A stretch of DNA of 64,000 nucleotides from Candidatus Niyogibacteria bacterium (GTDB lineage: Bacteria > Patescibacteriota > Minisyncoccia > JACROR01). Positions 831-43,928 of the stretch are shown one piece after another (the first letter of the stretch is position 1; each line of letters opens with the position of its first letter). The position numbers and the translations under genes were made by a program. The stretch spans positions 66,447-130,446 of the forward strand of contig JACROR010000009.1 of NCBI GenBank assembly GCA_016214345.1. Direction: 5' to 3'. Below the pieces are notes generated by a model. It had not been told where the DNA came from. It saw only the letters and a list, made by a program, of their open reading frames with translations, and did no database searches.

Positions 831-833
831 TTC

Positions 834-3089: not shown

Positions 3090-3107
3090 AAAAATAAATT
3101 GATTTTC

Positions 3108-3123: not shown

Positions 3124-3167
3124 TATTAGTTTGTTTGGTATAATAATATTGTAAGATCATAAATCCA

Positions 3168-4184: not shown

Positions 4185-4190
4185 AAAAAT

Positions 4191-4940
4191 ATGAAATACT
4201 TTCCAAATAAAATCACGATTTTAACCATTATAGCCGCTGTTTTAGTATTGACGCCAATACTAACCTACGGATATACTTTTTTGGCGCCATTGCCCGGACT
4301 TGAAAAAACAATAGAAGGATCAAGCCTGTTCTCCGCATACCTTTCCGCCCTGTTTCGTTTTGCCATAGTAATAGCCTCCATACTGGCCGTAATAGTTATA
4401 ATAATCGCCGGACTGAAATACATAGGCGCCGCGGGCAATACCGCCGTCGTTAATGACGCCAAAGATCAAATATACTGGGCCGTTTTAGGACTCATTCTCG
4501 CGCTTTCTTCCTGGTTGATTTTAAGTATCATCAATCCTAAACTTTTAGTATTAAAACTGGGAGTAACCTCCACAAAGCTAATTCAAGCCCCAAACGCTGA
4601 AAGCCTGTTTTCCGGCGCTTATTGTGGTCAGTTCACAGAAAACAGCGCGTGCACCGCAGACGCTAGTTGCACCTGTAAATGCCTAGTCGGACAAGCGGCG
4701 GCAACAACTTGCAATAGCCTGAATCAGAGCGATTGCTCAGAAAATGCATATTGCAAATGGTGGTTCGCTTCAAACACATGTAACCCGCTAATAAAAGTTA
4801 AATGCCAATATAAAAATACCACCTTAAACTGCCAAACCGGACCTAAATGCGGCATATTTCCTGAGACAGATACACTGTGTTGTATGGGCTCTGCTGTGAA
4901 ATGTCAGCCATCTTCCGCAATTACCGTAACTCCGCAATAA
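4191..4940 (+). CDS. VirB2/TrbC-like pilin-type membrane protein fused to a cysteine-rich C-terminal extracellular domain
   Basis: Long signal-like N-terminus followed by two further hydrophobic helices (pilin-like topology), then ~110 aa containing 17 Cys (CGQFTENSACTADASCTCKC...). Confidence 0.4.
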   Translation: MKYFPNKITILTIIAAVLVLTPILTYGYTFLAPLPGLEKTIEGSSLFSAYLSALFRFAIVIASILAVIVIIIAGLKYIGAAGNTAVVNDAKDQIYWAVLGLILALSSWLILSIINPKLLVLKLGVTSTKLIQAPNAESLFSGAYCGQFTENSACTADASCTCKCLVGQAAATTCNSLNQSDCSENAYCKWWFASNTCNPLIKVKCQYKNTTLNCQTGPKCGIFPETDTLCCMGSAVKCQPSSAITVTPQ

Positions 4941-4945
4941 ATAAT

Positions 4946-9264: not shown

Positions 9265-9432
9265 GAGAGGATTTTAACGGATCTTATCCCTACATAGGCC
9301 AAAAATTCGGAGGAAGAGACCACACTACGGCTATTCACTCTTATTTAAAAGTTGCCCAGGATATAAAAAAGGGGGGGAGGGTTGTGGAAGAAATAAAAAC
9401 CATACGAGAAAATCTTTACAATACCGTTTAAT
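9243..9432 (+). other. dnaA: Out-of-frame DnaA C-terminal fragment (domain IV signature helix)
   Basis: Translation in a second frame gives ...DFNGSYPYIGQKFGGRDHTTAIHSYLKVAQDIKKGGRVVEEIK...*, which contains the DnaA signature GGRDHTT. About 95 aa of DnaA (end of domain III plus the HTH start) are missing between the two pieces. Confidence 0.7.
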
Positions 9433-9674
9433 TGTTAATAAGCTCTGAAAAACATATTCATAAAATCTTAATAAAAAATCAAAAAAATCCTTTCAAATTT
9501 ACCACGCCCGAATAATTAACAGTAAACTCATATTTTTTCAACAATTTATTAATTTTAAAAATCACAAAAAGTATTTAAGAGCAACGTATTTGATTCAAAT
9601 ACACTTATTAACACCGCTAATAATAACAATAAATTTTAAATATTTTATAAATACTTATAATTAATTAAAAAAAT
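9433..9674. promoter_or_regulatory. Candidate oriC DNA-unwinding element / dnaN upstream region (very AT-rich)
   Basis: 240 bp that are AT-rich throughout (longest G/C-containing stretch is ACCACGCCCG), lying between dnaA and dnaN in the canonical origin arrangement. Confidence 0.45.
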
Positions 9675-10775
9675 ATGAAAATAACTTGCGTAAAAAATCC
9701 ATTAAAAGAAGTACTTTTTTTGGCGGAAAAAAATGCCGGGAAAATTTTAAATATGCCGATTTTAAACGGAGTTTATCTTAAAACCGAAAATAATTCTTTA
9801 AAAGTAATATCTACTAATTTGGAAACCGGATTTGAAGGAATTATTCCGGCCAAAGTGCAAAAAGAAGGCGAAGTCGTAGTTCCCGTAAAAATATTGGCGC
9901 AACTCGTGGGAGCGTCTTATGAAGATAAAATAACGCTGGAATCGGTAAAAAATAATCTAAATGTTTCTACGGAAAAAGTATCAAGTTTTATAAAGGGTTA
10001 TCCCATTGAAGATTTTCCAAAAATACCGAATATTAAATCAACTAATAAGTTTGATATTTCAGCCAAAGATTTGAGTAACGCGTTAAAATTCGTGCAAAAC
10101 GCGGCTTCCATTTCAATGATGAAACCGGAAATATCCAGTGTGTTTTTTAACGTTCAAAATAAAAATTTCATTAAAATAGTAGCCACGGATTCTTTTCGCT
10201 TAGCTGAAAAAACTTTAGAGTACGCGGTTAAAAACGCGGATTATTTTTTAATTCCGGAAAAAAGCGCGTCTGAATTATCCAGAATCCTGGAGAATAAAGA
10301 AGATAATGTACAAATAGCATTTGATAAAAATCAAATAGGATTTTACGGCGATAGTTTTAAGTTCACCTCGCGTTTGACGGAAGGAAGTTTTCCCAGTTAT
10401 GAATCCGTTATTCCTAAAAAATTTTCCACGGAAGTTTTAATCTCTCGCAACAGATTGATAGACGCGTTTCGTTCAGCCAGCATATTTACCGGAAATTTGA
10501 ATGAAATAAGCCTGCATATAATGCCCGAAGATAATTTATTGGAAATAAGAACAAAGCATAGCGACATAGGAGAACACACTTCGCAAGTTGACGCTAAAAT
10601 AATTGGAGAAAAAATAACCCTTAATTTTAATTACCATTACGTTTTGGATGGACTGCAGAACATGAGTTGTTCAGACGTTATGCTTCGTTTTAGCGGAGAA
10701 AACAGACCTCTTTTGATACAAGAGCCCAATAATTCTCAGGGAGTTTACTTGGTAATGCCGATGAAAAATGCTTAG
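9675..10775 (+). CDS. dnaN: DNA polymerase III beta sliding clamp
   Basis: 366 aa, three-domain clamp architecture, located downstream of dnaA. Confidence 0.9.
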   Translation: MKITCVKNPLKEVLFLAEKNAGKILNMPILNGVYLKTENNSLKVISTNLETGFEGIIPAKVQKEGEVVVPVKILAQLVGASYEDKITLESVKNNLNVSTEKVSSFIKGYPIEDFPKIPNIKSTNKFDISAKDLSNALKFVQNAASISMMKPEISSVFFNVQNKNFIKIVATDSFRLAEKTLEYAVKNADYFLIPEKSASELSRILENKEDNVQIAFDKNQIGFYGDSFKFTSRLTEGSFPSYESVIPKKFSTEVLISRNRLIDAFRSASIFTGNLNEISLHIMPEDNLLEIRTKHSDIGEHTSQVDAKIIGEKITLNFNYHYVLDGLQNMSCSDVMLRFSGENRPLLIQEPNNSQGVYLVMPMKNA

Positions 10776-11057: not shown

Positions 11058-13616
11058 TTATTGGAAATTTAAGATCTGTTCCAGTTTACCAATGTTGCCT
11101 ACCTCATCATAGGCTTTTATCATCAAGTCTATTTGGTTGGGGATGGAACTTAATTGTGAAAGATTAAAGTTAATTTCGTATGGCGCGATTTTCTTTGAGC
11201 CGATATACGTGTTATCCAGAAAGAAATCAACCTGTCTTATTTTATAAGGGCTAAAAATTTCTACTTTTATGTCCAGGCTTTCAGCGCTGAGAGATAGGGC
11301 GCCGCTCGGTTTGGTAAGGCGGATGTTTGGCGCGTGTTCCGGTTTGTGTATGTTGTCAAAAGTTTTGGGCAGATCGGTTTCGGTCTGTTCAATTATGCCT
11401 TGTTCGGCTGCCCATTTCCGCACCGGCCATTCCCACATGCGAAATTGCGGATCTGAATCCGGATCCGCCGGAGACGGTCCCAGAGGATTATTTTTATCAA
11501 GCCAGTAGAGTATGGAGTGTATTTGAGTCAGAACTTTTTCTTCCGTTAATTCCGGGGGCGTAAAGTCCGTGGCCAGTTTTTTAGATACGGAATCCACAAG
11601 ATAAACCCTTCCTCCCCTCCATTCGCCACGCAATACCGGTTTTGGCGCGAGAGGGTTTTCGGGAGCAATGAAATTTTCCGCCGGCATGCTTTTAAGCGCC
11701 TCTTTAAAAAAAGCATTCCACATGGGCGCCACAATAAAGCCAGCCACCTTTTTTTCCATTTGAGAATTATCGTTATTGCCGGCCCACGCGCCGAGTGCGA
11801 AATTCGGCGTGTATCCTATAATCCAGGCGTCTCGTGAATCATTGGTGGTTCCTGTTTTGGCGGCAACGTCTCTGCCCGGGAAATAAAGAGGAGAGTTTTC
11901 TCCAAATGCCGGTACGCGCGCCCGGTTATCCGAAAGCACGCTGTTTATAAGCCTGGCGATTTGAGGTTCTAAAATCTTTTCTTCCTTTTTTTGGTATTCT
12001 TCTAAAACTTTTCCGTTGGCATCCTCAACTTTTTCTATGAAGGTCGGCGTGGTCCGTACGCCATCATTTCCAAAAACTCCGTATGCTCCCACTATGTCCA
12101 AAAGCTTTACTTCTCCGCCTCCCAGAACCAGGGTTAGTCCGTATCTTTCCGGATCGTTCAAGGTGGTTATGCCCATACTCTTCGCGGTTTTAAGGGTATC
12201 CGTGAATCCGGCCAAATACAACGTTTTTACCGCCGGAACATTTATGGATTGGGCTAAGGCCTCGCGCATGGTTATGGGTCCGCGGAAAACATGGTCGTAA
12301 TTTTCGGGATGATAACATTCGTCTTTGTATTGCGGATTATTTTTTAATTTTTCAGCGGTTTCTTTTTCTTGCGCTTTAAGGTCGGGATTGCACCGGGGGT
12401 TGAATTCCGTTTGTAAGTCAAACAAGGCGGTGTCCGGGGCATAGCCCTTTTTAAGGGCCGTGGCGTAAGCAAAGGGCTTGAAGGCGGAACCGGGCTGTCG
12501 CAACGCGAGCGTAACATTAAAATTACCTTCAAATTTACAGGAAAGCCCTGGAACGCAATTTTCCGGTTCCGGCGGAGCAAAATAGTTTTTGGATCCTGCC
12601 ATAACCAATAATTTTCCGGTTTTGGGATCAGTAGCCACCATCCCGGTGTTGTGGGCGTTAAATTTGTTTAAATTTTCTTCGGCAAATTGGTTGATGGTGA
12701 CCTCGGCTTTTTTTTGTAGATCCCAGTCAAGCGTGGTAGTTACTTTAAGTCCTCCGCTTGCCACCAGGTCTTCGCCGTATTTATTTTCCAAGTAGTCTTT
12801 AACCATCATTACGAAGTGAGGAGCTTTTAAAGTGTTGGCGTCATCTTTGGCGATAAAAACCACGTTTTCTTTTTGGGCGGCTTCTTTTTCCTCTTCGGTT
12901 ATGAATTTCAGATCAGCCATTTTGGCTAAAATAAGATCTTTGCGCGATTTAAGTTCTTTGGCGTGCAGTCCAAAAGGAGAATAGTAGGACGGGGCTTGCG
13001 GTAGCGCGGCCAAATAAGCGGATTCGGCGAGTGTAAGATCTTTGGCGCGCTTATTGAAGAAAGTTTGCGAGGCGGCCTCAATGCCGTAACTGCTTGAACC
13101 GTAAGGTATTTCGTTCAGATATAATTCCAGGATTTTTTCTTTGGAATATTTTTGTTCTATTTTTATCGCCAACACCAGCTCTTTTAATTTACGGGAAAAG
13201 GTTTTTTCCGGAGTTAAGAAGCTGTTTTTTACCAGCTGTTGCGTTATGGTGGAGCCTCCCTGTTTTTTCGCGCCGGTAAAAATATCAGTTAACAGGGCGC
13301 GCAGTATGGAGAACGGCGCTATGCCGCCGTGATAATAAAAATTGTCATCTTCAATGGCTACCGTGGCATTTTTGATTTGTCGTGGCATTTCCGCGAAAGA
13401 TATTACCGTTCGTTTGATGTCTTGATGCACATCATATAAAGACACCTTTCCGGTTTTATCATAAATTTTGGTTGACTGCACTACTTTTCTGTTCAGAAGA
13501 GTGTTAAAGTCGGGTATTTTTACGCTAATTAACAGAACCCAAATACTAAAAACCCCGACCATTAAAATGCCGGATACGGTGGCTATGGGAAATATTTTTT
13601 TTGCAACCGCTTTCAT
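11058..13616 (-). CDS. Class A penicillin-binding protein (transglycosylase + transpeptidase), PBP1A family
   Basis: GT51 motifs (GGSTITQQLVKN), transpeptidase domain, N-terminal TM anchor; ~150-aa C-terminal extension. Confidence 0.9.
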   Translation of the reverse strand: MKAVAKKIFPIATVSGILMVGVFSIWVLLISVKIPDFNTLLNRKVVQSTKIYDKTGKVSLYDVHQDIKRTVISFAEMPRQIKNATVAIEDDNFYYHGGIAPFSILRALLTDIFTGAKKQGGSTITQQLVKNSFLTPEKTFSRKLKELVLAIKIEQKYSKEKILELYLNEIPYGSSSYGIEAASQTFFNKRAKDLTLAESAYLAALPQAPSYYSPFGLHAKELKSRKDLILAKMADLKFITEEEKEAAQKENVVFIAKDDANTLKAPHFVMMVKDYLENKYGEDLVASGGLKVTTTLDWDLQKKAEVTINQFAEENLNKFNAHNTGMVATDPKTGKLLVMAGSKNYFAPPEPENCVPGLSCKFEGNFNVTLALRQPGSAFKPFAYATALKKGYAPDTALFDLQTEFNPRCNPDLKAQEKETAEKLKNNPQYKDECYHPENYDHVFRGPITMREALAQSINVPAVKTLYLAGFTDTLKTAKSMGITTLNDPERYGLTLVLGGGEVKLLDIVGAYGVFGNDGVRTTPTFIEKVEDANGKVLEEYQKKEEKILEPQIARLINSVLSDNRARVPAFGENSPLYFPGRDVAAKTGTTNDSRDAWIIGYTPNFALGAWAGNNDNSQMEKKVAGFIVAPMWNAFFKEALKSMPAENFIAPENPLAPKPVLRGEWRGGRVYLVDSVSKKLATDFTPPELTEEKVLTQIHSILYWLDKNNPLGPSPADPDSDPQFRMWEWPVRKWAAEQGIIEQTETDLPKTFDNIHKPEHAPNIRLTKPSGALSLSAESLDIKVEIFSPYKIRQVDFFLDNTYIGSKKIAPYEINFNLSQLSSIPNQIDLMIKAYDEVGNIGKLEQILNFQ

Positions 13617-21157: not shown

Positions 21158-21607
21158 ATGGAATCTTTGAAGGTCGTTACTCATAGCGCGAAAGAAACCC
21201 AAAAATTAGGAATGCTTTTGGCTAAGGAATGTTTTAAAATTAAACAAGGCAGGCATGCTTTAGTTATCGGTTTGGAGGGAGATTTGGGTGGCGGCAAGAC
21301 CACGTTTATGCAGGGGTTTGCCCGCGGCTTGGGAATCAAAGAGAATATTACCAGCCCCACTTTTGTTTTACTTAAAATGTTTAAATTGGCGCGGAAAAAT
21401 TTTAGACGTTTGGCGCACATTGACGCTTATCGCCTGAAATCCGCGCGCGGATTGAAGCTTCTGGGGTGGGACGAACTTCTGTCAGACCCCGCCAATATAA
21501 TAGTCGTGGAGTGGGCGGACAAAGTCAGGGCTTTTATGCCGAAAGATCGCGTGCGGATCACCTTTGATTATGGTGATAAAAATGAAAGGAAAATAAATGT
21601 CAGTTAA
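21158..21607 (+). CDS. tsaE: tRNA t6A37 biosynthesis ATPase TsaE (YjeE)
   Basis: GDLGGGKTTFMQGFARGLGI...SPTFVL. Confidence 0.8.
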   Translation: MESLKVVTHSAKETQKLGMLLAKECFKIKQGRHALVIGLEGDLGGGKTTFMQGFARGLGIKENITSPTFVLLKMFKLARKNFRRLAHIDAYRLKSARGLKLLGWDELLSDPANIIVVEWADKVRAFMPKDRVRITFDYGDKNERKINVS

Positions 21608-23954
21608 GACCAACGTAAAAAATAAAAATACGGAACGGATATTGGTGCTTTTGGACGCGCACGCTATTTTACATCGCGCCTTCCATGCTTTGCCGTCTTT
21701 TACTTCTCCGCAGGGGGCGCCCACAGGCGCGCTTTACGGTTTTTCATCCATGCTGATCAAGATTATCCGGGAATTAAAACCGGATTTTATAGTGGCCTGT
21801 TATGAGTTGCCGCAGCCAACTTTCCGGCATGTTGTTTACGAGGCTTATAAAGGTAAGCGGCCTAAAATGGACGAGGGTTTGGCCTTGCAAATAAATAGAT
21901 CCAGAGACATTTTGAAGGCGTTTAATATTCCGAGCTATGACGCTCCGGGATTTGAAGCGGACGACATTATAGGCACCATTGCTTTTAAATCCAAAAAAGA
22001 AAAAAATCTCAAAGTGATCATCGCTTCAGGCGATTTAGACACGCTTCAATTGGTATCGGGCAGCAAGGTTACGGTTTATACTCTTAAAAAAGGCATCCAA
22101 GACACAATTATTTATGATGAGGCCGGAGTAAAAGAGCGTTTTGGTTTTGTTCCGGCGTTATTGCCGGACTTTAAAGGCCTCAAGGGCGATCCTTCGGACA
22201 ATATTATCGGGGTTCCGGGCATAGGCGATAAGAGCGCGACGGAACTCATTTTAAAATTCGGTTCTTTGGAAAATATTTATAAAAATTTAAAAAAAGACCG
22301 CGCTAAATTTTTAAATCTGGGAATAAAACAGCGCATTGCCGCGCTTTTGGAAGAGCATGAAGATGACGCGCTGTTCAGCAAGGAATTGGCCACGATTCGT
22401 TTGGACGCACCCGTGATCTTTCATATAAAAGATACGGAATGGAGCAAGAATTACGATCGCGCAAAAGCGGAAAAATTATTCAGGGAATTGGGTTTTGCGA
22501 GCTTGCTTTCCCGTTTGCCCGGAGAGGCGGAAAGTCCAAAGATTTCGGTTTCCACGATAAATCCCCAAAAAGAAAAAGAGCTCTCGGTGGCTTTTTGGTT
22601 GCTGGATTCGCGCCACATAAATGCTTCGGCGGAAGACATTTTTAGGGCGGTTAACGCCAAAAATACGGAAGAAGCGGAAGCGGCGCTTAACGGCAAGTTG
22701 GCAAAAGAAGGGCTGATTAATTTTTTTGAAGAAACTGAAATACCCCTGATGAGCATATTGAATGAAATGGAGCGGCGCGGTATTTTAATAGACCGGAAAA
22801 TTTTAATGAGATTTTCCAAAAAATATGAAAAAGAAATAGTGACATTGGAAAAGAGGATTTGCCAGTTGGCGGGTGCCAAGTTTAATGTCGCTTCTCCCAA
22901 ACAGTTGTCGGAAATTTTATACGATAAATTAAAAATTTCCACCAAGGGAATAAGAAAAACCGGAGGCGGAGCGCAATCCACAAGTTTTCCCGAATTAAAA
23001 AAACTTTTACATAGCCATCCTATTATTGAGTTGGTGTTAAAATATCGCGAATTGGCGAAGCTAAAATCAACTTATTTGGACACTTTGCCCGGATTGGCCG
23101 ATAAAGATTCGCGTGTTCATACCACTTATAATCAGGCGGGCACGGCAACGGGTCGCTTTTCTTCGCAAAATCCCAATTTGCAAAATATTCCGGTTAAATC
23201 GGAAACCGGGAAAGAAATTCGCAGGGCATTCATAGCTCCTGCCGGTTGGAAGATGCTTTCCGCGGATTATTCTCAAATTGAGCTTCGTGTCGCGGCCATG
23301 TTGTCTGACGATAAGATCATGAAGAGAGCTTTTTTGGAGGGAAAAGACATTCATGGCGCCACGGCTTCGGCGGTGTTTAATGTTTCGGAAGGTGAGGTGA
23401 CCAAAGAAATGCGCCGGCGCGCCAAGGTTATTAATTTTGGCATTTTGTACGGTATGGGGGCGAGGTCGCTTTCAGAAAATTTAGGAGTTTCATTGGATGA
23501 AGCTAAAAAATATTTGGCGGAATATTTTGAAGATTTTTCCGGAATTAAAAAATACATGGATGATACGAAAAATACGGCAAAGAGTTTGGGTTTTGTCAAA
23601 ACCTTGTTCGGCCGTAAGCGTTATTTTCCCGAATTGCGATCCTTGCCCGAATATCTTCATCATGAATTTTTGCGCATGGCGGTTAACGCTCCGATCCAGG
23701 GTACGGCCGCGGATATCATGAAAATAGCCATGGTGCGAGCGCATCGCGCGCTTCAAAAAGATCCAGAAATGGCGCAAAGCGCGCGTATGATTTTGCAGAT
23801 TCACGATGAACTCATTTTTGAAATTAAAGATGAATTTGTGTTAAAGGCCGCGAAGATCATCAAACAAGAAATGGAGAGCGCGTATCAAGATGAGATTCCG
23901 CTCACGGTGGATATAAAAATCGGTCCTAACTGGGCGGACATGGAAAGAATATGA
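21597..23954 (+). CDS. polA: DNA polymerase I (5'-3' exonuclease + family A polymerase domains)
   Basis: N-terminal FEN-like domain, C-terminal Pol A motifs (DYSQIELR, QIHDELIFE). Confidence 0.9.
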   Translation: MSVKTNVKNKNTERILVLLDAHAILHRAFHALPSFTSPQGAPTGALYGFSSMLIKIIRELKPDFIVACYELPQPTFRHVVYEAYKGKRPKMDEGLALQINRSRDILKAFNIPSYDAPGFEADDIIGTIAFKSKKEKNLKVIIASGDLDTLQLVSGSKVTVYTLKKGIQDTIIYDEAGVKERFGFVPALLPDFKGLKGDPSDNIIGVPGIGDKSATELILKFGSLENIYKNLKKDRAKFLNLGIKQRIAALLEEHEDDALFSKELATIRLDAPVIFHIKDTEWSKNYDRAKAEKLFRELGFASLLSRLPGEAESPKISVSTINPQKEKELSVAFWLLDSRHINASAEDIFRAVNAKNTEEAEAALNGKLAKEGLINFFEETEIPLMSILNEMERRGILIDRKILMRFSKKYEKEIVTLEKRICQLAGAKFNVASPKQLSEILYDKLKISTKGIRKTGGGAQSTSFPELKKLLHSHPIIELVLKYRELAKLKSTYLDTLPGLADKDSRVHTTYNQAGTATGRFSSQNPNLQNIPVKSETGKEIRRAFIAPAGWKMLSADYSQIELRVAAMLSDDKIMKRAFLEGKDIHGATASAVFNVSEGEVTKEMRRRAKVINFGILYGMGARSLSENLGVSLDEAKKYLAEYFEDFSGIKKYMDDTKNTAKSLGFVKTLFGRKRYFPELRSLPEYLHHEFLRMAVNAPIQGTAADIMKIAMVRAHRALQKDPEMAQSARMILQIHDELIFEIKDEFVLKAAKIIKQEMESAYQDEIPLTVDIKIGPNWADMERI

Positions 23955-35036: not shown

Positions 35037-35107
35037 TTAGCTTAATGTGCTAAATTTTTATTTAAGTTAACATGGTACTTTAAAATGCATGGATTGGAGG
35101 TGAGTTT

Positions 35108-35350
35108 ATGGGCATTGATTGGGAGGGTATTATTGGAAGATTATCTTCTGGAAATAGTGCGGGAGAAAGATATGGCGAAGCTCTTATGGCCGCGCAGGAC
35201 GACATACACAGATTGTTTGATCTAGCAAATGAAGAAGAAGCTACGGGAAAGATCTTGATGTCTTCTGAGGATCGTGAACAGCTAGAGGCGTTGAAGCGCC
35301 CACTGTCCATGAAAGCGATTGGCAGGCTGGTAAGGGAAACTGAGGATTAA
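35108..35350 (+). CDS. Small hypothetical protein (80 aa), first of a tandem pair
   Basis: Strong SD GGAGGTGA 7 nt upstream; begins MGIDWEGIIGRL. Confidence 0.45.
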   Translation: MGIDWEGIIGRLSSGNSAGERYGEALMAAQDDIHRLFDLANEEEATGKILMSSEDREQLEALKRPLSMKAIGRLVRETED

Positions 35351-35367
35351 GAAAGGAGCTGATTGGT

Positions 35368-35478
35368 ATGGGCATAATTGAGCGCTTTTTTGGTGGAATG
35401 GTACACCTCTTGGGAGGTACTGATTGGAATGGGAGAGCTGACGAAGAAATTCAGATCCTCGCAAGATACGAGGACTGA
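35368..35478 (+). CDS. Small hypothetical protein (36 aa), second of the tandem pair
   Basis: SD AAGGAG; begins MGIIERFFGG (similar start to the upstream ORF); followed by a terminator. Confidence 0.35.
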   Translation: MGIIERFFGGMVHLLGGTDWNGRADEEIQILARYED

Positions 35479-35481
35479 ATA

Positions 35482-35516
35482 AAAATGGGCGTCTAAAACG
35501 GCGCCCATTTTTTGTT
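35482..35516 (+). terminator. Intrinsic terminator after the small-ORF pair
   Basis: AAAATGGGCG...CGCCCATTTT hairpin plus T-run. Confidence 0.65.
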
Positions 35517-35561
35517 ATATTTTTGCATAATTTATGATAAAAATGGTTTATAATTATAAAT

Positions 35562-36209
35562 ATGATTAAAAAGTTTGAGAATTTTGAAACTAGAGAATAT
35601 TTAGACGCGGGCATTGCCGTAGCGGTGGAGGGCGAGGCGGCTCGGGCGGCTTTGTCTATGGCAGAGGAAATTGCCAAGCGAGCCCCAACGGTTTTTCGTA
35701 TTGATGCCAAGCATCTTCCGCATATTACTTTATTTCAAGGCAGATTTCCCGCGCGCTCGCAAGAAGCGCTAAATGAATATTTTCAAAAAATAACACGGGA
35801 ACAAGGTGTGCCGTTAAGGATTGAAATGGAAGATAGTTTGTTCGCGCGTCCTAATGGCAATATATTTTGGAATGTTAAAAAAACTCCGGAAATTATAGGA
35901 CTCCACAAGGAAATGAATGACATTTTGCGTCCATTGACTGACGGCATGTTAATGCGGCAATTTTCAGACTTGCTTAAAGGCGCGTCTTTAAGCGAAGAAG
36001 ACCGTCATCAAATTGAAAAATATGGCGCATTGTTGGCCGGTGATAAATATATGCCGCACATTACTTTATGCAGATTGGAGCGCGCGAAGGATGTTGATTC
36101 AATTAAGAATATTAAACCTCCGAGCGTTATTTTTTCTGCCGAAAAATTTATAGGAGGCGAGCTTGGCTATTACGGAACAATCGACAAAGTTATTTTTGAG
36201 GAAAAATAA
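35562..36209 (+). CDS. 2H phosphoesterase superfamily protein (LigT/2'-5' RNA ligase-like)
   Basis: Two H-x-T-x motifs (HITLFQG and HITLCRL). Confidence 0.65.
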   Translation: MIKKFENFETREYLDAGIAVAVEGEAARAALSMAEEIAKRAPTVFRIDAKHLPHITLFQGRFPARSQEALNEYFQKITREQGVPLRIEMEDSLFARPNGNIFWNVKKTPEIIGLHKEMNDILRPLTDGMLMRQFSDLLKGASLSEEDRHQIEKYGALLAGDKYMPHITLCRLERAKDVDSIKNIKPPSVIFSAEKFIGGELGYYGTIDKVIFEEK

Positions 36210-37095: not shown

Positions 37096-37204
37096 TATTT
37101 AATGGTAGTACAACCACGCGGCGAATAAAAGCGCGCGAATTTCGCAGGTATTTTTGCTATTTATTTCCCGTCTTTTAAATAATAAATAAATTTTTAATAT
37201 ACAG

Positions 37205-37266
37205 TAAAATTCCGCGACCGCGGAAAATAAATGTATATTAAATACAATGAATGTAATATAATAAAT
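37205..37266. repeat. Direct repeat copy 1, upstream of the PaaX-like gene
   Basis: Shares ~45 nt with 37877-37940 (TCCGCGACCGCGGA hairpin core plus AATATAATAAATG). Confidence 0.6.
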
Positions 37267-37268
37267 GT

Positions 37269-37832
37269 ATGGGAAAAATAGAACAACAAATCGCTAAAAA
37301 TCGACGGCGAACGAATATAAAAAAGATAATTCTCGGGTCAGTGGCATTAGTCGGTATTTTAAGTGTTGGCATGGTGGCGCCGAATGTCTTGGGATCGATG
37401 GCGAAGCTCGGTATTTTGCCGCGCCGACGCCAGAAAGAAATTATCAATCAATCGCGCGAGCGATTAGTGCGACAAGGATTACTGCAATATACTAATGGCA
37501 AGCTAAGACTCACCACTAAGGGTGAGACGGTTTTGCGCCGCTTGGAGCTGTCGGAATATAGATTCAAAAAACCTATACGCTGGGACGGTCGTTGGCGGGT
37601 GCTTATTTTTGATATTCCTGAAAAGAGAAAAGGATTGCGTGATAGGGTTCGCGATACCCTGGTCGCCATAGGTTTTGTACACGCACAAGACAGCGTCTGG
37701 ATTTATCCATACGATTGCGAGGATATGGTTACCTTACTTAAGGCGGATTTTAAGATAGGCAAGGATTTACTTTATTTGGTGGTAGAAAAAATGGAGTACG
37801 ATACGGCCTTCAAAGATCATTTCGGTTTATAA
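37269..37832 (+). CDS. PaaX-family-like putative transcriptional regulator (N-terminal TM, wHTH, C-terminal WDGRW...FDIPE domain with a Cas2/VapD-like motif pattern)
   Basis: LTTKGETVLRRLEL wHTH; WDGRWRVLIFDIPEKRKGLRDRVRDTLVAIGFVHAQDSVWIYP. Confidence 0.4.
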   Translation: MGKIEQQIAKNRRRTNIKKIILGSVALVGILSVGMVAPNVLGSMAKLGILPRRRQKEIINQSRERLVRQGLLQYTNGKLRLTTKGETVLRRLELSEYRFKKPIRWDGRWRVLIFDIPEKRKGLRDRVRDTLVAIGFVHAQDSVWIYPYDCEDMVTLLKADFKIGKDLLYLVVEKMEYDTAFKDHFGL

Positions 37833-37876
37833 AAATCTAAATTATTCTGCAAAATATACTTTTTATAGGTAAAGAT

Positions 37877-37940
37877 GTTTCTACATTAAAAATCCGCGAC
37901 CGCGGATTTTTAATGTAAGGAATATAATAAATGGTCTATA
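37877..37940. repeat. Direct repeat copy 2, downstream of the PaaX-like gene
   Basis: AAAAATCCGCGACCGCGGATTTTTAATGTA...AATATAATAAATG; compare copy 1. Confidence 0.6.
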
Positions 37941-38013
37941 TTGTATGTGTGGCATATCATGCGAATATTTGTTAAAATACAACCATTATATTATCAATTA
38001 AAATATTAAAAAT

Positions 38014-38415
38014 ATGTTAAGCGTTTTTCCGCAGTTGTTCGCGTTTCAGATGCTGGCGCCATTTATTTTGCGACTTGTCTTGGGGCTGGTTTTCGTGGCG
38101 CACGGCTATCCGAAATTATTCAAGAATTTTTCGGAAACCGCCGGATTTTTCGGGATGTTGGGTTTAAGGCCGGCGAAGTTTTGGGTTTTGGTGGTTGGCG
38201 TGGTTGAATTTTTTGGAGGGATTTTATTGTTGCTTGGTTTGTTCACGCAGGCGGCGGCGGCATTGATAGCGATAGATATGATCGTCGCCATGTTATTGGT
38301 AAGCCGCAAAAAAGGATTCGTGGGAGGTTATGAATTTGATCTGGCATTGCTCGCCATGGCGCTCTCTTTGCTGGTTTTGGGTTCGGGCACATTCGCGTTC
38401 GACGTCATGTTTTAG
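38014..38415 (+). CDS. DoxX-family membrane protein
   Basis: DoxX-like 4-TM organisation, GLVFVAHGYPKLF. Confidence 0.7.
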   Translation: MLSVFPQLFAFQMLAPFILRLVLGLVFVAHGYPKLFKNFSETAGFFGMLGLRPAKFWVLVVGVVEFFGGILLLLGLFTQAAAALIAIDMIVAMLLVSRKKGFVGGYEFDLALLAMALSLLVLGSGTFAFDVMF

Positions 38416-38478
38416 CGATCGTTCATGTTATTAACAAAAAGCTCGCCAAACGGCGGGTTTTTTGCTATATTGTTTTTG

Positions 38479-39294
38479 ATGAAGGACACGGTCGTATTTG
38501 ATATAGAAACCAAAAAAAGTTTTGATGATGTGGGAGGCAGAGATCACATGGACCTTTTGGGCATATCCGTGCTCTGCGCTTATTCTTATAATAAGGACGC
38601 GTATTTCGCGTTCGAAGAACACGAAGTGAGTGGATTTAAAAAAATGTTGGATGAGGCGGATACTCTGATAGGATTTAACATTAAGGGCTTTGATATTCCG
38701 GTGATGGAGCCGTATATTCCGGCGGCTTCTTACAACTTGGCGGTTTTGGATCTGATGGACGATGTGGTGCGAGGCGCCGGTTTTCGTATCTCTTTGGATA
38801 ATTTGGCGGGCACGACTTTGGGCGTTAAAAAAAGCGCGGACGGTTTACAGGCACTCCAGTGGTATAAAGAAGGCAAAATAGACGAGATTAAAAAATATTG
38901 CACGCAGGATGTGCGGGTTACCAAAGAATTGTACGAGCACGGCAAGGCGCATGGGAACATTTCATTTTTTTCGCGCGATCAGATGAGGAAAATGGCTATT
39001 CCCGTATCTTGGGGAAGTCCGGCGCAAAAAGACGTTTCTTTCGTTTTGCGCGAAGCGCTTGCGGAGCGGCGGAGTGTGGAAATAGATTATGTCACCGGAA
39101 CCGCGTCTTCGTCTTCCGATGAACCGCGCAACACGCGTCTGGTGGACATTTACAAATTGAGCAAGGAAGTTTTTGAAGGGTATTGCCATTTGCGGCGCGC
39201 GCCGCGTATTTTTAAAGTTGACCGCGTCTTATCCGCTAAAATTACCGGAAATCCTTATGTTATAAAAGAGGATATTCAGGACTCTCTTTTTTGA
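38479..39294 (+). CDS. DEDD-type 3'-5' exonuclease fused to a C-terminal WYL-like domain
   Basis: Exo I VVFDIETK, Exo II LIGFNIKGFDIP, Exo III YCTQDVRVTKELY; C-terminal RSVEIDYVTG...RLVDIY...GYCHLRRAPRIFKVDRVLSAKIT (WYL-like). The ORF track opens at 38425; I chose the internal Met. Confidence 0.55.
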   Translation: MKDTVVFDIETKKSFDDVGGRDHMDLLGISVLCAYSYNKDAYFAFEEHEVSGFKKMLDEADTLIGFNIKGFDIPVMEPYIPAASYNLAVLDLMDDVVRGAGFRISLDNLAGTTLGVKKSADGLQALQWYKEGKIDEIKKYCTQDVRVTKELYEHGKAHGNISFFSRDQMRKMAIPVSWGSPAQKDVSFVLREALAERRSVEIDYVTGTASSSSDEPRNTRLVDIYKLSKEVFEGYCHLRRAPRIFKVDRVLSAKITGNPYVIKEDIQDSLF

Positions 39295-39319
39295 AAGAAA
39301 TACTTTAGTATAAAAGCCA

Positions 39320-39802
39320 ATGCATTTTTTATTCCATAATTTGAAACACGATTTTAGTTTCGCCGAGCTGATAGACGCGATAGTTTTTTATATTGACGAG
39401 AATCCGCGCGATCGTTATGAGATAGTGGTGGGTACGGATTCGCGGGCGGCGGAAAAAGTTTGTTTTGTGACCGCGGTCGGCGTTTGGCGCGTGGGGCACG
39501 GCGGCAGATATTTTTGGACCAAGTCTCCGGAATCGGCGTGTCCCATTTTGCGGGATCGTATTTACAAAGAAGCCATGCAATCCATCATGCTGATGCAGGA
39601 ATTAAAAAGCGCGTTGCGGGAACGTTTAGGGGAGGAATTTTTCTGGGATAATAAGATAACCGTACACATTGACGTGGGACAAAATGGCCCGACCCGGGAA
39701 TTCATAGACGGTTTGGTAGGCATGGTGAAAGGCTTCGGTTTTGAGGCCGCGATCAAACCATATTCGTTCGGCGCATCGATTTTGGCGGATCGGCATACTT
39801 AA
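39320..39802 (+). CDS. YkuK/DUF458-family RNase H-like protein
   Basis: IVVGTDSRAAEKVCFVTAVGVWRVGHGGRYF...ITVHIDVGQNGPTREFIDGL. Confidence 0.6.
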   Translation: MHFLFHNLKHDFSFAELIDAIVFYIDENPRDRYEIVVGTDSRAAEKVCFVTAVGVWRVGHGGRYFWTKSPESACPILRDRIYKEAMQSIMLMQELKSALRERLGEEFFWDNKITVHIDVGQNGPTREFIDGLVGMVKGFGFEAAIKPYSFGASILADRHT

Positions 39803-39838
39803 ATCCAGCACCTTTTTGTTACAAAAAGATGCTGGATT
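39802..39838. repeat. Fold-back hairpin AATCCAGCACCTTTTTGT-TAC-AAAAAGATGCTGGATT related to the TIRs of the 57.6-kb MITE-like element
   Basis: 18-bp stem with 1 mismatch; same ATCCAGCACC...TTTTGT motif at 57604 and 57692, decayed copy at 42664. Confidence 0.65.
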
Positions 39839-39922
39839 AAAAAATAATATTTGCATCCATTCAGTTGGAAAGTTATCAGGGCAGAAAGTTTATAAGGTCA
39901 CTAGTAAAATAAATTTAATTAC

Positions 39923-39995
39923 GCACCCATAGCTCAGTTGGTAGAGCAACTCCCTCTTAAGGAGATGGTCGTAGGTTCGAATCCTACTGGGTGCA
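39923..39995 (+). tRNA. tRNA-Lys (anticodon CUU)
   Basis: Manual cloverleaf: 7-bp acceptor GCACCCA/TGGGTGC, D-stem GCTC/GAGC, anticodon loop CU-CUU-AA, T-stem GTAGG/CCTAC with TTCGAAT loop; no encoded CCA. Confidence 0.85.
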
Positions 39996-40202
39996 TAAGA
40001 CAAGAAATTATGTTAAAATAATTGGAATCACATGAATCGAAACCGCAAAAGAACTCGGAGAAAAACATCGGCTCGAACCACATTTTAATTTTGGGGGAAG
40101 AAAATTTTTAATCATATAGCATCGATAACTCATACTAGTCAATTTCACCTACCCGCCAACTTTGTTCCACAGATCTTAAAAGCAACCAGATTTGCCTTTA
40201 AG

Positions 40203-40526
40203 ATGTTTTCGCCAATTATCATTCCAATTGTTGCGGTCGGAATTTTTGGCATTACGCTTAGAATAATTATAAACAGAATTCGTCAACTTCCGCTCGAACC
40301 CGGTGTCGGCTTTTTTGGTCGGCTCGTCAAGCAAAAAAAGTTAATTGCTTTTCTCCTCGCTACTATAAGTGCATTTTCCACTTGGCTTGCCCTACAACCG
40401 CCAGAATTTCAGCAAGCATTCATGTTGCCGATTCAGCTACTAACTGGTTTGGTTGTTTATGATAAGGCTCTTTTTGCACTTGCGACGACCTTGTTCGGAA
40501 TTGCTGTAGCCGCTCTATTTCTTTAA
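40203..40526 (+). CDS. Small membrane protein, hypothetical
   Basis: 107 aa, 3 predicted TM helices. Confidence 0.4.
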   Translation: MFSPIIIPIVAVGIFGITLRIIINRIRQLPLEPGVGFFGRLVKQKKLIAFLLATISAFSTWLALQPPEFQQAFMLPIQLLTGLVVYDKALFALATTLFGIAVAALFL

Positions 40527-40616
40527 AGTTTGCCGTTAAAGAAAAATAAGAATACAGCACCACATAAAAAATCACCCGTCTTGGATGGGTGATTTTTGTT
40601 TGCCGTGTTTTACGGC

Positions 40617-41714
40617 TTATTTTTTCGGAGAAGATTTTGGCGCTTTTTCCGGTTTCGGTTCCGGCTTTTCGTTGAGCCTTACCGTAACGAATTTGGTTTC
40701 GCCTTGGCGCATTATTTCCAAAACCACTTCGGTTCCGGGTTTTTGGAAAGAGATAAGGCGAGTAACGTCAACTATATTGCTCATCATCTGATCGTTCACT
40801 TTCAGGATAATATCGCCCTTTGTCAGGCCGTTTTTTTCCGCCACTCCGCCCGGAATGATAAATAGAGCGAGCGTTCCCGGAACCTTTTCGGGTAGTTTAT
40901 AGGCCTTGAAGTCATTGGACATTGTTTGGAAATTAAGATCGTGCAGAAAGGCGTAGTGCATGCCCAGATTGGCGCGCGTTACTTTGCCGCCCTCCATTAA
41001 TCTCGGTAAAAGTATTTTGAGATCACCGATTGGCACGGCCAGATTAATGCCCGTGATTTCTCCGTTTGTGGACAGGGTCATCATGTCAACTATTCCCACA
41101 ACTTGTCCTTGCCGGCTAATAAGCGGTCCGCCGGAAGAGCCAAAATATATGGGCGCGTCTGTTTGGAGAAAATAAGGATCATTATAATTATCTCCAAAAA
41201 AGAAAGTCGGATTTTTTGATACTATGCCCTCAGTGGCAGTCCACAAAGATCTGTTGGGATGTCCAAGGGCTATAATTTTTTGTCCGACCGGAGGATCTTC
41301 CCCGAGTTGTATGACGGGGAAATCAGTTCCTTGAATTTTAAGCAGGGCAACATCTCTTTGCGGATCAAAACCAATAAGGCTGGCTGGCTGGCAATTTTCG
41401 CGTTCCAAATCGCCATAGCGTTCTACCGCGTTTTCATAGAGGCAGGCTTGTATTGTGGAATCGGCGTGATTTACCACATGCCAGGCAGTTAAGATATATC
41501 CGTCTGTGGTTATTAAGAAACCGCTGCCATGGCCTCTTTCTTGGCTTTTAATGTTCGTAATGCCAATGAAAACTACGGCTTTTTTGGCTTCCGCGATGGT
41601 GCTCACTAATTGTTCATCGGTATTTGGCGCGTTTGCCACAGATGATTTTGGAGCATGCGCGCAGTCAACAAATTGCAATACGCAAATTAACAAGATGGTC
41701 AACAAATATCTCAT
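40617..41714 (-). CDS. htrA: HtrA/DegP-family serine protease with PDZ domain
   Basis: Catalytic triad context TAWHVV, GSSGGPLI; C-terminal PDZ. Confidence 0.85.
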   Translation of the reverse strand: MRYLLTILLICVLQFVDCAHAPKSSVANAPNTDEQLVSTIAEAKKAVVFIGITNIKSQERGHGSGFLITTDGYILTAWHVVNHADSTIQACLYENAVERYGDLERENCQPASLIGFDPQRDVALLKIQGTDFPVIQLGEDPPVGQKIIALGHPNRSLWTATEGIVSKNPTFFFGDNYNDPYFLQTDAPIYFGSSGGPLISRQGQVVGIVDMMTLSTNGEITGINLAVPIGDLKILLPRLMEGGKVTRANLGMHYAFLHDLNFQTMSNDFKAYKLPEKVPGTLALFIIPGGVAEKNGLTKGDIILKVNDQMMSNIVDVTRLISFQKPGTEVVLEIMRQGETKFVTVRLNEKPEPKPEKAPKSSPKK

Positions 41715-42073
41715 TACTTCCTCCTCACCATTCAGTTTTCAAAGTTCTTGTTTAAAAAAAATCCCAAGGCATTGCCCGGGTTTTTTGCATATTCAATTAA
41801 CCCCTTTCAGGATAGAGTCGTTCCCCTTACCCAGAAAGTCATTATTTCAGATAATGTATTGATGGTTATTATTCACACCAATGACATCGGCCAAATAATA
41901 GGCTTTGCCATATCATGCGCGCCCGTAGCGCGCAATGGCTTTCTGGGTGAGGGGTGCCCTTTCCTTCAGGTATTGTTGTTAAGCTTAGCAGGATGCGATT
42001 ATTTTTGTCAATAAGATAGAGTTTGATGCGGCATATGAATTAAAAAACGAATTTTTTGTGATAGAATGTATGT

Positions 42074-42637
42074 ATGGGAGAAATAATAGAGATCGGAAAA
42101 TTATTGGTTAAATTGATTTTGTTGCTGGCGTCGGCGGCGGCGATTTACGCCCTTGCCATGAGTTCAAGCATTATAATTAATCATAAAGAAAATATTATGA
42201 AAATTTCTAGTCCGATTTTTGAAGAAGGGGCGGCGATCCCGGAAAAATACACCTGTGACGGAGATGACGCGAGTCCGGCTTTGGAAATTTCGGGCGTTCC
42301 GGCGGGGACGCAAAGCCTCGCGTTGTTAATGGACGATCCGGATTCGCCTTCCGGCAATTTCGTGCATTGGACGATCTGGAATATTCGCGCGAATGAAACG
42401 GAAATTAAAGAGAATACAAAACCGGAGGGGGCGGTGGAAGGCGTTAACAGTTTCGGTAATATAGGTTACGGAGGACCGTGCCCGCATGCCGGTACTCACC
42501 GCTATTTTTTTCGGCTGTACGCGCTGGATAAGACGCTTGATTTATCATCCGGCGCGGACGTAGTGGCGCTAAAACAATCCATGGAGGGGCATGTATTGGC
42601 TGAAGCGAAATTGATGGGAAATTATACGCGGCGCTAA
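42074..42637 (+). CDS. YbhB/YbcL (PEBP/Raf-kinase-inhibitor-like) family protein
   Basis: DDPDSPSG...HWTIWN...GPCPHAGTHRYFFRLYALD. Confidence 0.75.
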   Translation: MGEIIEIGKLLVKLILLLASAAAIYALAMSSSIIINHKENIMKISSPIFEEGAAIPEKYTCDGDDASPALEISGVPAGTQSLALLMDDPDSPSGNFVHWTIWNIRANETEIKENTKPEGAVEGVNSFGNIGYGGPCPHAGTHRYFFRLYALDKTLDLSSGADVVALKQSMEGHVLAEAKLMGNYTRR

Positions 42638-42698
42638 ATTTTTCCGCTAAATTTTTAATAATAATCCAGCGCCTTTTTGTTACAAAAAATGCCGAATT

Positions 42699-43721
42699 TT
42701 ATTTCAACAACCCTTTTAATTCCAGAAATATCAATATGAACCATCCCAGTTGCAAGACGAAGAAAAGCACTAGCTGGATCACTTCCAACGCGTGATAGCG
42801 CGTAACGCTGAAATTTTCAGATACGATATTATATACATCTTCTATGGATTCCAATTTGTCTTTGATGATCGTCCGCCATTCGTCAAAGCGGAACATTTTG
42901 GCGAACATTTCGTATAATTTGGCGGAGTACCAATCGCCGATCAATTTAATTTCCCGTTCAATGACATCAAATTGCGAAATGGATTGCCCGCGCAAAGCTA
43001 TGACTTCTTTAAAGGCTTTTTCCATATCCTTGGTGCTCCATACCACAAGTCTGGTGTTCGGAGACTTTGCAATTAATTTTGAAGCCTTGGTAAGGCGTTC
43101 GGACAGATCTTGTTCCAAAATGCGGTAGCGAAGCAATTGTAGCGTGGCAATTTGAAATAGCTCTATATCCGATTGATATTCTTCGCCCGGTTCAAACATG
43201 AAAGCTCCGTCCCAGCCGATAATGGTGAGATCGTTTTGCGCGTATTTAATTTGATTTTGCACCGCATATTTTATTTCATATTCGTCCAACGCGATCCTTT
43301 CTGATTTTAAAAACCTTACTATGGCGGGGGACTGGTTGAAAAATTGTTCCGGATTTCCTTGATATCCTGATACCATGGCTACGGCATATTCTTCGCTCAT
43401 TTCAAAACTGCCGCCATGTTCTTTGCTTATTTGTTGGCAGGCATCTATCAATTTTTTCCGTAATTCAAAGGCTTCTATGGAAAAAACATCATCTATTTCA
43501 GTCGCGGCTTCTACCACTAAAATGTCCGGATGATAAGATTTGATGAGAAAATTGATATCTTTGCCGTCAATATTTTTCTTTTTTTGGCCGATGGTGTGTT
43601 GGGGCGGTATGGTGGTGGCAAAATAATGCGGCGCGCTCTGCGGCGGGAGCGTCATTACCAGCTCGCCCTTTTTGAGCTTGGAAGATTCAGCTAAAACAAA
43701 TGATATAAGCTTATGCGACAT
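42699..43721 (-). CDS. Hypothetical protein with C-terminal TM helix
   Basis: 340 aa; no confident family assignment. Confidence 0.3.
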   Translation of the reverse strand: MSHKLISFVLAESSKLKKGELVMTLPPQSAPHYFATTIPPQHTIGQKKKNIDGKDINFLIKSYHPDILVVEAATEIDDVFSIEAFELRKKLIDACQQISKEHGGSFEMSEEYAVAMVSGYQGNPEQFFNQSPAIVRFLKSERIALDEYEIKYAVQNQIKYAQNDLTIIGWDGAFMFEPGEEYQSDIELFQIATLQLLRYRILEQDLSERLTKASKLIAKSPNTRLVVWSTKDMEKAFKEVIALRGQSISQFDVIEREIKLIGDWYSAKLYEMFAKMFRFDEWRTIIKDKLESIEDVYNIVSENFSVTRYHALEVIQLVLFFVLQLGWFILIFLELKGLLK

Positions 43722-43772
43722 ATATCCTTATTTTAGCAAAATTCGGCCATTTTTGGAATTTTTAACACGGCG

Positions 43773-43813
43773 AAAACCAGCACTTGGAAGCTTAGCTTCC
43801 AAGTGCTGGTTTT
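43773..43813 (-). terminator. Strong hairpin (19-bp stem) acting as the rpmB terminator; member of the ACTTGGAAGCTTAGCTTCCAAGT repeat family
   Basis: AAAACCAGCACTTGGAAGC-TTA-GCTTCCAAGTGCTGGTTTT. Confidence 0.65.
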
Positions 43814-43928
43814 GGGAGTTTTATTCAATTCGGGCTGCGGAGAATCGGACTCCGTCCTCACCCACCCCAAGGGTGTGCGCTGCCGTTACGCTACAGCCCG
43901 TAAAACCTTGCTTGTTTAAAAAGCGCGG

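Follow-up and report, generated by a model that had tools for sequence, protein, structure and literature searches.

What is the role of a proofreading-type exonuclease that carries a WYL domain and is followed directly by a gene for a second, RNase-H-fold protein? The question is raised by a 64,000-nucleotide stretch of Candidatus Niyogibacteria DNA (GenBank assembly GCA_016214345.1, contig JACROR010000009.1, positions 66,447 to 130,446; the whole stretch is hereafter the window, and positions are counted from its first letter), which represents a Patescibacteria (candidate phyla radiation, CPR) genome of the Parcubacteria/Paceibacteria type. Two forward-strand genes are at issue: gene A (38479..39294), which encodes a 271-residue fusion of a DEDDy 3'-5' exonuclease with a WYL domain, and gene B (39320..39802), which starts 25 nt 3' of gene A and encodes a 160-residue YkuK/DUF458 protein of the RNase H fold, a predicted nuclease. 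A preliminary description of this DNA had viewed them, together with the tRNA gene behind them, as a candidate defence or nucleic-acid surveillance module within a stretch of accessory-island flavour. Our analyses lead to a different picture. The domains are known, their fusion has been catalogued, and the locus is an ordinary conserved core operon: together, genes A and B make up a bicistronic unit of the core genome of Paceibacteria-type Patescibacteria that is inherited vertically. That this unit serves housekeeping rather than defence is very probable; that the service is DNA repair or strand processing has, in our estimate, about an even chance.

The exonuclease, its WYL domain and the DUF458 partner

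The assignment of gene A draws on Pfam, a homologue alignment and an AlphaFold model of the protein with a predicted local distance difference test score (pLDDT) of 87.7. Pfam matches on residues 6-154 comprise RNase_H_2 (PF13482, 1.5e-10), DNA_pol_B_exo2 (PF10108, 9.9e-9) and DNA_pol_A_exo1 (PF01612, 5e-6), and the exonuclease domain (residues 1-178; 38479..39012), which is of the PolB-proofreading and MrfA-fused type, adopts the RNase-H-like alpha/beta fold of proofreading exonucleases. Across 24 aligned homologues with 44-93% identity to gene A, D8, E10, N67, F71, D72, Y140, C141 and D144 are invariant, and D8, E10, N67, F71, D72, Y140 and D144 are so too in a broader set of 16 sequences. 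The motifs Exo I (D8/E10), Exo II (N67..F71-D72) and Exo III (Y140-x3-D144) are thus intact, as the preliminary description had stated, with catalytic codons at 38500 (D8), 38506 (E10), 38692 (D72), 38896 (Y140) and 38908 (D144) on the forward strand. The tyrosine in Exo III marks the DEDDy type; judged by its sequence, the protein is a member of the DEDD (DnaQ-like) superfamily, DEDDy subgroup, with predicted 3'-5' activity. Homologue starts line up with 38479 as the beginning of the gene. A longer alternative open reading frame (ORF) starting at 38425 would include an intrinsic-terminator-like hairpin (38435..38464, + strand; 13-bp stem followed by a U-tract; -18.5 kcal/mol, z = -5.3), which the start at 38479 leaves outside. 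This hairpin lies behind a DoxX gene and forms the divide between it and the nuclease operon; a weak promoter-like site on the same strand (38443-38471) overlaps it.

Approximately residues 181-259 (39019..39255, + strand) form a WYL domain, an Sm-like beta-barrel. Its proposed identity was borne out by Pfam, which gave 33.8 bits for PF13280 over residues 189-254 against a gathering score of 21.8, and a profile search of the PDB matched PafBC, PafC, a chain of entry 7tb5 and a WYL-bearing AAA ATPase. The WYL groove has been defined by four basic residues and a frequent cysteine on an Sm-like SH3 beta-barrel (PMC4012209). Within the gene A family, C236 is invariant and R197, R220, R239, R243 and Y235 occur in at least 90% of sequences; the cysteine and the four arginines match the groove pattern, and the domain belongs with the Sm-like barrels. 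Moreover, Y235-C-H...R243-x-F-K246 lines up with the stretch 'YCH..R.FR' of PafBC, a protein in which ssDNA (single-stranded DNA) binding needs two conserved arginines and the motif tyrosine and which single-stranded RNA (ssRNA) did not activate (PMC11804915). Mapped by this alignment onto the numbering of M. smegmatis PafBC, the gene A residues would occupy corresponding positions, and the basic groove with which PafBC and DriD bind ssDNA appears to be kept. The WYL domains characterised so far are binders of single-stranded nucleic acid (PMC11804915, PMC9186387, PMC11662680), and gene A shares the above-threshold Pfam match, the cysteine and the basic groove with the ssDNA sensors PafBC, DriD, CapW and BrxR and with the WYL domains of Pif1/SF1 helicases.

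In other respects gene A departs from these proteins. Unlike regulators that combine a helix-turn-helix (HTH) with WYL and WCX domains, its WYL domain is fused directly to a nuclease: neither the Pfam scan nor the AlphaFold model contains an HTH or a WCX domain, the N-terminus being occupied by the exonuclease and about 12 residues following the barrel. The absence of both modules argues that the protein is not a transcription factor, and we take the WYL domain to be a part of the enzyme that binds single strands or acts allosterically. Such a role on ssDNA, in substrate binding or allostery, fits the domain better than that of a small-molecule sensor for defence. A further difference from WYL sensors is that the domain is dispensable in some lineages. 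The fusion itself is not new, since a WYL domain joined to a '3'->5' exoRNase' was entered, as a one-line listing, in the architecture catalogue of Makarova et al. in 2014 (PMC4012209); beyond that listing, our search of the literature for exonuclease-WYL proteins in Patescibacteria found no characterisation of it.

Gene B passes as a member of YkuK/DUF458 (COG1978), a family predicted to be RNase-H1-like, and confirms this part of the preliminary description. It matches PF04308 (RNaseH_like, formerly DUF458/YkuK) at 7.9e-43 and 146 bits, has the RNase H fold and retains a D-E-D-D tetrad (D40, E84, D118 and D157) that is invariant across 22 sequences with identities to gene B down to 38%; the tetrad includes the helix-alpha1 glutamate noted for RNase H1 and YkuK (PMC3985635). 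For the family as a whole, our literature search yielded fold predictions only (PMC3985635). What sets gene B apart is that its operon partners are a DNA-type exonuclease and a tRNA gene, a context that the literature search did not find for YkuK/DUF458 elsewhere. A homologue also occurs in the replication module of a marine (Tara/GOV) phage clade (L161, 4381-9471; L171, 5492-10540), where it matches PF04308 at 5.7e-31 and has a small ORF on one side and a DnaG-like primase on the other; a fused Mre11/Rad50-like protein comes next.

Distribution and conservation of the operon

Homologues of gene A number 1407 at E <= 1e-3, nearly all of the best 120 being about 270 aa long with query coverage of 97-100%, and the few named ones among the best matches are mostly labelled as Patescibacteria (Niyogibacteria, Giovannonibacteria, 'Patescibacteria group'). 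Counting one genome per GTDB species, the exonuclease family occupies at least 573 loci, again mostly in Patescibacteria, with some carriers in Omnitrophota, Planctomycetes, Aerophobetes and Nitrospiria. Gene order was analysed in the best 80 of these loci, 74 of which have at least 700 nt of downstream flank; they are contigs of metagenome-assembled genomes, whose NCBI labels can be unreliable.

A DUF458 gene stands directly downstream of the exonuclease and on the same strand in 35 of the 74 loci. The pairing falls off with divergence of the exonuclease domain from gene A, from 25 of 29 loci at 50% identity or more to 7 of 19 at 46-50% and 3 of 26 below 46%. Where the pair is present, exonuclease identity drops to about 41% and the gap between the two genes has a median of 25 nt (range -17 to 199). 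The gene upstream changes from locus to locus (DoxX, a DUF192-peptidase S9 protein, a Mur ligase, SpoU and others) while the pair stays intact, and the pair is kept in 10 loci whose exonuclease has lost its WYL domain. Conversely, 27 loci, from Komeilibacteria-like genomes, Omnitrophota and Planctomycetes, encode an exonuclease-WYL protein with no adjacent DUF458 gene. The preliminary description had treated the two genes as one module, and in this it holds: they remain adjacent and co-directional across deeply diverged genomes while their flanks are exchanged.

The operon is followed by a fold-back and a tRNA gene, as had been noted. The hairpin (39799..39841, + strand) overlaps the DUF458 stop codon, has 21-nt arms (39799-39819 and 39821-39841) that are 90% complementary (-17.6 kcal/mol, z = -6.1), and has no U-tract behind it. 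As a conserved element it found no support: in L163, one of the closest relatives, the tRNA begins 16 nt past the stop, which leaves no room for a hairpin. The tRNA-Lys(CTT) gene (39923-39995, + strand) lacks an encoded CCA and is the operon's syntenic neighbour in this clade; in an Rfam scan of 36.0-44.5 kb, it and one other tRNA were the only credible matches. Among DUF458-bearing loci, a same-strand tRNA lies within 200 nt of the DUF458 end in 15 and within 1 kb in 7 more. It is usually tRNA-Arg(CCG), whereas the window's own clade (L163, L004) has tRNA-Lys(CTT). One locus, L028, has both, with tRNA-Arg at the DUF458 stop and tRNA-Lys 736 nt beyond, so the arrangement in the window can be explained by loss of tRNA-Arg and the intervening DNA.

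The spacing in those relatives is tight. In L028 (tRNA at 11084-11158), L033, L048, L077, L026, L002 and L003, tRNA-Arg(CCG) starts 0-4 nt from the DUF458 stop; in L028 it begins with the G of the TAG stop codon, an offset shared by L033 and L048, and in L077 it directly adjoins the stop. Where tRNA and stop overlap, RNase P processing would cut into the stop codon, an arrangement that resembles the 'tRNA punctuation' of mitochondrial mRNAs. A tRNA abutting or overlapping the stop argues for co-transcription and long-standing synteny and against an integration site, and the operon is probably co-transcribed with the downstream tRNA.

Processing of DNA, of RNA, or separate tasks

Which proteins does the exonuclease resemble most? 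A HMMER search with the family profile against 1.84 billion cluster representatives returned 4242 proteins at E <= 1e-3 and 450 at E <= 1e-30, and architectures were read from the best 150 of the 4242, of which 145 have a near-full-length exonuclease domain. Of these 145, 56 are stand-alone (~190 aa), 36 continue for at least 60 aa beyond the domain at the C-terminus, which is the size range of WYL fusions, and N-terminal extensions measure 40-99 aa in 21, 100-599 aa in 20 and at least 600 aa in 12. The DEDDy signature YCxxD is present in 142 of the 145 representatives. Representatives with N-terminal extensions were scanned with Pfam. Five full-length proteins among them (P0307, P0322, P0327, P0333 and P0342) combine DEAD, Helicase_C and MZB, the MrfA Zn-binding domain, with WHD_HRQ1 in four of the five; by Pfam, P0350 has this helicase architecture minus the DEAD match only, and P0320, P0372 and P0299 have MZB before the exonuclease domain, P0320 with WHD_HRQ1 as well.

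The kinship with these domains, which sit at the C-terminus of DEAD-Helicase_C-MZB helicases of the MrfA (YprA) type, is close. Over residues 2-178, gene A shares 41% identity with the C-terminal domain of P0322 (E = 7e-44), and over residues 5-178 it shares 45% with the MZB-exonuclease protein P0299; both of these proteins stop at a 'PVxW' motif, exactly where the WYL domain starts in gene A. The near-orthology of a stand-alone exonuclease to MrfA-fused exonuclease domains that these alignments suggest appears to be undescribed in the literature searched, as does the replacement of a helicase or TPR partner by WYL. Exonuclease-associated YprA helicases constitute the DNA-repair branch of their family (10.1101/2025.09.15.676423). 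The helicase-exonuclease fusions have ordinary metabolic and regulatory neighbours, with no DUF458 gene in the contexts examined.

MrfAB is a mitomycin-C repair pathway of Bacillus subtilis, in which MrfB acts as a 3'-5' DNA exonuclease with a helicase in an excision-type repair. Gene A shares with MrfB (YprB) the PF13482 core and the set of structural neighbours reported for it, namely archaeal PolB, Pol epsilon, POLA1 and NrnC (PMC11194089). However, MrfB is a DEDDh enzyme with catalytic H258 and a C-terminal TPR domain (PMC11194089), while gene A has Y140 at the histidine position, WYL for TPR, and a YkuK partner gene. Neither the window nor the related loci in which the exonuclease ORF and its neighbours could be mapped, 74 out of 80, have an MrfA/YprA helicase beside the exonuclease, although close homologues of the domain are fused to just such helicases. 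The MrfB structure (PDB 8UN9) was neither recovered by the family profile at E <= 10 nor among the fold matches listed. Strict membership in the MrfB group was rejected on account of the DEDDy motif, the WYL domain and the unrecovered structure. The closest structural neighbours of gene A are the proofreading domains of PolB, Pol epsilon and T7 together with ExoI. With the proofreading domains of family B and A polymerases, and with E. coli ExoI and ExoX, it would share two-metal DEDD chemistry; unlike the former, it stands alone with no polymerase domain. RNase D, NrnC and diDNase also occur among its structural and profile matches but are far weaker sequence relatives than the helicase-fused domains, and gene A has no HRDC domain.

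A helicase is found near the exonuclease in one further setting. In 15 Komeilibacteria-like loci, a PcrA/UvrD gene lies upstream on the same strand within three genes; in 8 of the 15 it is directly adjacent, with gaps of 29-139 nt, and the one representative scanned matches TIGR01073 at 2.4e-141. The block reads YchF(-) / PcrA-UvrD(+) / exo-WYL(+) / FolD(-) / GlyA(-) and spans about 7500-10800 in L054, L057, L058, L060, L062, L068, L070-L072, L074, L075 and L080. This adjacency may be a split analogue of the MrfA-exonuclease fusions.

Taken together, the kinship with MrfA-type helicase fusions, the UvrD adjacency and the folds of the closest structural neighbours lead us to favour DNA somewhat over RNA as the substrate. 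The ssDNA-binding pattern of the WYL groove and the replication-type neighbours of the marine phage YkuK homologue are further points for a role in DNA processing. We propose the following model for a housekeeping operon of DNA repair or strand processing. Gene A would act as a stand-alone, proofreading-type DEDDy 3'-5' exonuclease in which WYL takes the place of the helicase. The WYL barrel would bind an exposed 3' single strand and either tether the exonuclease to ssDNA or switch it on allosterically. YkuK would contribute an endonucleolytic step, a nick or the cutting of a flap or an RNA:DNA hybrid, that creates or clears the substrate of the exonuclease, and the DEDDy domain would then resect the strand 3'->5', a task that this domain may also have in the MrfA-type helicase fusions and possibly beside PcrA/UvrD. 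The role of WYL and the division of labour between the two proteins are inferred from their domains and their context. It is also conceivable that gene A has a putative part in proofreading or end cleaning in trans, since the DNA polymerase I of the window (21597-23954) has 5'-3' exonuclease and polymerase domains with some 65-115 residues between them and no match to a 3'-5' exonuclease domain. In its most specific form, the proposal is a compact strand-excision system typical of Paceibacteria that dispenses with a dedicated MrfA-type helicase, YkuK nicking and a WYL-gated or WYL-tethered exonuclease resecting; we offer this version tentatively, as one of low probability.

Several observations weigh against a DNA-processing operon. 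Neither the window nor the other loci of Paceibacteria type have an adjacent MrfA- or UvrD-type helicase, and the UvrD adjacency, seen in a single set of related genomes, may be plain synteny. By fold, DUF458 comes closest to RNase H enzymes and PIWI domains, whose substrates are duplexes that contain RNA, and one more divergent phage YkuK homologue has a context other than the replication module described above. Some neighbours point towards RNA (archease, RtcB, a LigT-like gene, SpoU and the tRNA), and the 2014 catalogue names the nuclease of the fusion an exoRNase (PMC4012209).

Much of this would fit an operon for RNA processing or repair, in which the DEDDy domain trims RNA 3' ends such as tRNA 3' trailers, WYL binds ssRNA in the manner of WYL1 or Hfq, and YkuK is an endoribonuclease. 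The tRNA genes here lack an encoded CCA, a tRNA follows the pair directly in many lineages, at times abutting or overlapping the stop, and RNase D and NrnC/diDNase are among the matches of the exonuclease. In five Omnitrophota and Planctomycetes loci, a related set of genomes, exo-WYL is followed by a metallo-beta-lactamase (MBL)-fold protein that resembles RNase Z; the one scanned, however, reaches 139 bits against an RNase Z cutoff of 293, and a cyclic-nucleotide phosphodiesterase model scores equally. Against this reading, the identity of the tRNA changes between arginine (CCG) and lysine (CTT), for which a simple deletion would account given that L028 has both, and opposite-strand and unrelated genes separate RtcB and SpoU from the pair. 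Further points against an RNA substrate are the fusion of the exonuclease's closest sequence relatives to DNA-repair helicases, the DNA polymerase proofreading domains and ExoI at the top of its structural matches, and the response of PafBC-type WYL to ssDNA but not ssRNA (PMC11804915). We consider the RNA-processing operon unlikely.

Could the two genes, instead, be unrelated housekeeping genes that lineage-wide synteny and genome compaction have kept side by side with no joint mechanism? Patescibacteria genomes are compact and their gene order is long-lived, the pairing is limited to one large lineage, and 27 loci have WYL with no adjacent DUF458. Yet adjacency, strand and short spacing outlast both the reshuffling of the flanks and the loss of WYL, down to exonuclease identities of about 41%, and both products are RNase-H-superfamily nucleases, which would be unlikely for a random neighbour. 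On balance, such independence seems improbable, and the DNA repair or strand-processing operon remains the reading that we prefer.

Core synteny, the defence proposal and the wider window

How much of the surroundings is shared with relatives? Upstream of the operon lie the core genes for TsaE, PolA, holA, RuvA, a Mur ligase, archease, RtcB, SIMPL, a SpoU methylase, an LTD protein and DoxX (38014-38415, assigned by Pfam), a block collinear with L162, L163, L001, L002 and L040. Downstream are two M50 peptidases, rpsL, two ORFs that match the EF-G/EF-Tu (fusA/tuf) region of L002 and L040, and a ribosomal-protein cluster, a block matched only in L002 and L040. The closest relatives, which come from Hainich aquifer groundwater, are L162, with an exonuclease 93% identical to gene A, and L163, with 66%. 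In the 35-40 kb stretch, to which an accessory-island flavour had been ascribed, the window differs from L162 by two small insertions only (~35080-36209 and ~37150-37945); collinearity and the small number of inserts identify this stretch as core genome.

The second insertion, of about 0.8 kb in the LTD-DoxX intergenic region and absent from L162, holds the PaaX-like gene (37269-37832; a winged HTH and a Cas2-like PaaX_M domain behind a hydrophobic N-terminus). It is indeed flanked by repeats, as had been reported along with the DoxX gene: two 36-nt palindromes, 83% identical, at 37200-37235 and 37882-37917, of which the window has no further copy. The insertion resembles either a small gene cassette or a terminator that has been duplicated. 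The first, between the SpoU and LTD genes, contains an 80-aa ORF and a LigT-like 2H phosphoesterase, which resembles RNA 2',3'-cyclic phosphodiesterases with a score below the cutoff; L163 has its LigT-like gene between archease and RtcB instead.

Nor does the tRNA behave as the integration hotspot for which it had been taken: its association with the pair is ancestral, its 3' end occurs only once in the window and so provides no att repeat, the Pfam scan of ORFs at 40-44 kb turned up no integrase, and GC content shows no step at the locus (0.41-0.45, as in the surroundings). Integration at tRNA-Lys was rejected on these grounds. A mobile or phage origin was likewise dismissed, the exonuclease-WYL fusion having no plasmid match and the phage and viral collections containing only remote exonuclease domains, at 35% identity or less, with no WYL. 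The synteny and co-occurrence comparisons that the preliminary description had called for came out in two parts, the pair co-occurring widely and the block next to tRNA-Lys proving to be collinear core rather than variable. By its own account a conserved housekeeping locus would have spoken against the proposal, and a conserved, vertically inherited locus of the lineage is what we find.

The remaining alternative is an uncharacterised anti-phage or surveillance module in which WYL senses an infection signal and gates the exonuclease, with the RNase-H-like protein as second effector. In its favour, WYL domains are frequent in regulators of defence systems such as CapW and BrxR (PMC4012209, PMC11662680), the YprA helicase family has defence branches as well (10.1101/2025.09.15.676423), and the DNA downstream of the tRNA, at 40.0-43.9 kb, is lineage-specific. 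PADLOC matched gene A with generic WYL signalling models (best 4.9e-7) and, marginally, with RTasWYL-YodC (3.7e-4) and AbiEii (7.5e-3), gave no match for gene B, and had no defence-system model that took either protein as a component. With generic matches only, with a locus conserved and collinear in many species and bearing none of the marks of mobility discussed above, and with an exonuclease whose associated YprA branch is the one for repair, the defence module was rejected; largely refuted by synteny, it is very improbable.

Other parts of the window show features of their own. Between tRNA-Lys (+) and tRNA-Pro(GGG) (-), at 40000-43900, lie genes for an HtrA-like protease and a PEBP-family protein together with two ORFs, of 107 and 340 aa, that match no family; this stretch has almost no counterpart in related loci, where other genes stand, and may be a rearranged or variable segment. 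The sign of the GC skew changes at about 9 kb, which indicates that the window spans the replication origin. The dnaA ORF there (region 8311-9680) ends at 9264, lacking most of domain IV, and a C-terminal 'IGQKFGGRDHTTAIHS...' segment is encoded in another frame right after the stop, followed by about 250 nt of AT-rich, stop-dense sequence and then dnaN; this suggests an internal deletion or frameshift, in a pseudogene or through an assembly error. At the start of the window, a cluster at 186-6103 beside rnpA-yidC-dnaA encodes a TraG/VirB4-like P-loop ATPase (834-2651) along with several proteins that match no family, and may be a type IV secretion or conjugation-like module.

What, then, does the operon mean for the biology of these bacteria? 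In the literature searched, neither the lineage-wide order exo(-WYL)->YkuK->tRNA nor the functional hint that it gives for DUF458 appears to have been described. The analysis removes a false lead, in that a WYL domain beside a tRNA is not by itself the sign of a defence island. The locus joins three poorly understood parts: an MrfA-type exonuclease on its own, a WYL domain attached to an enzyme, and YkuK/DUF458. If the operon does serve DNA repair, it would provide a testable function for DUF458 and a simple system in which to study how ssDNA binding by WYL affects catalysis. Were the strand-excision version of our model true, it would give the DUF458 family its first function and would be the first case of a WYL domain that controls a nuclease directly rather than via transcription. 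Patescibacteria genomes are very small, and genes that stay conserved and linked in them are therefore likely to carry out essential maintenance.

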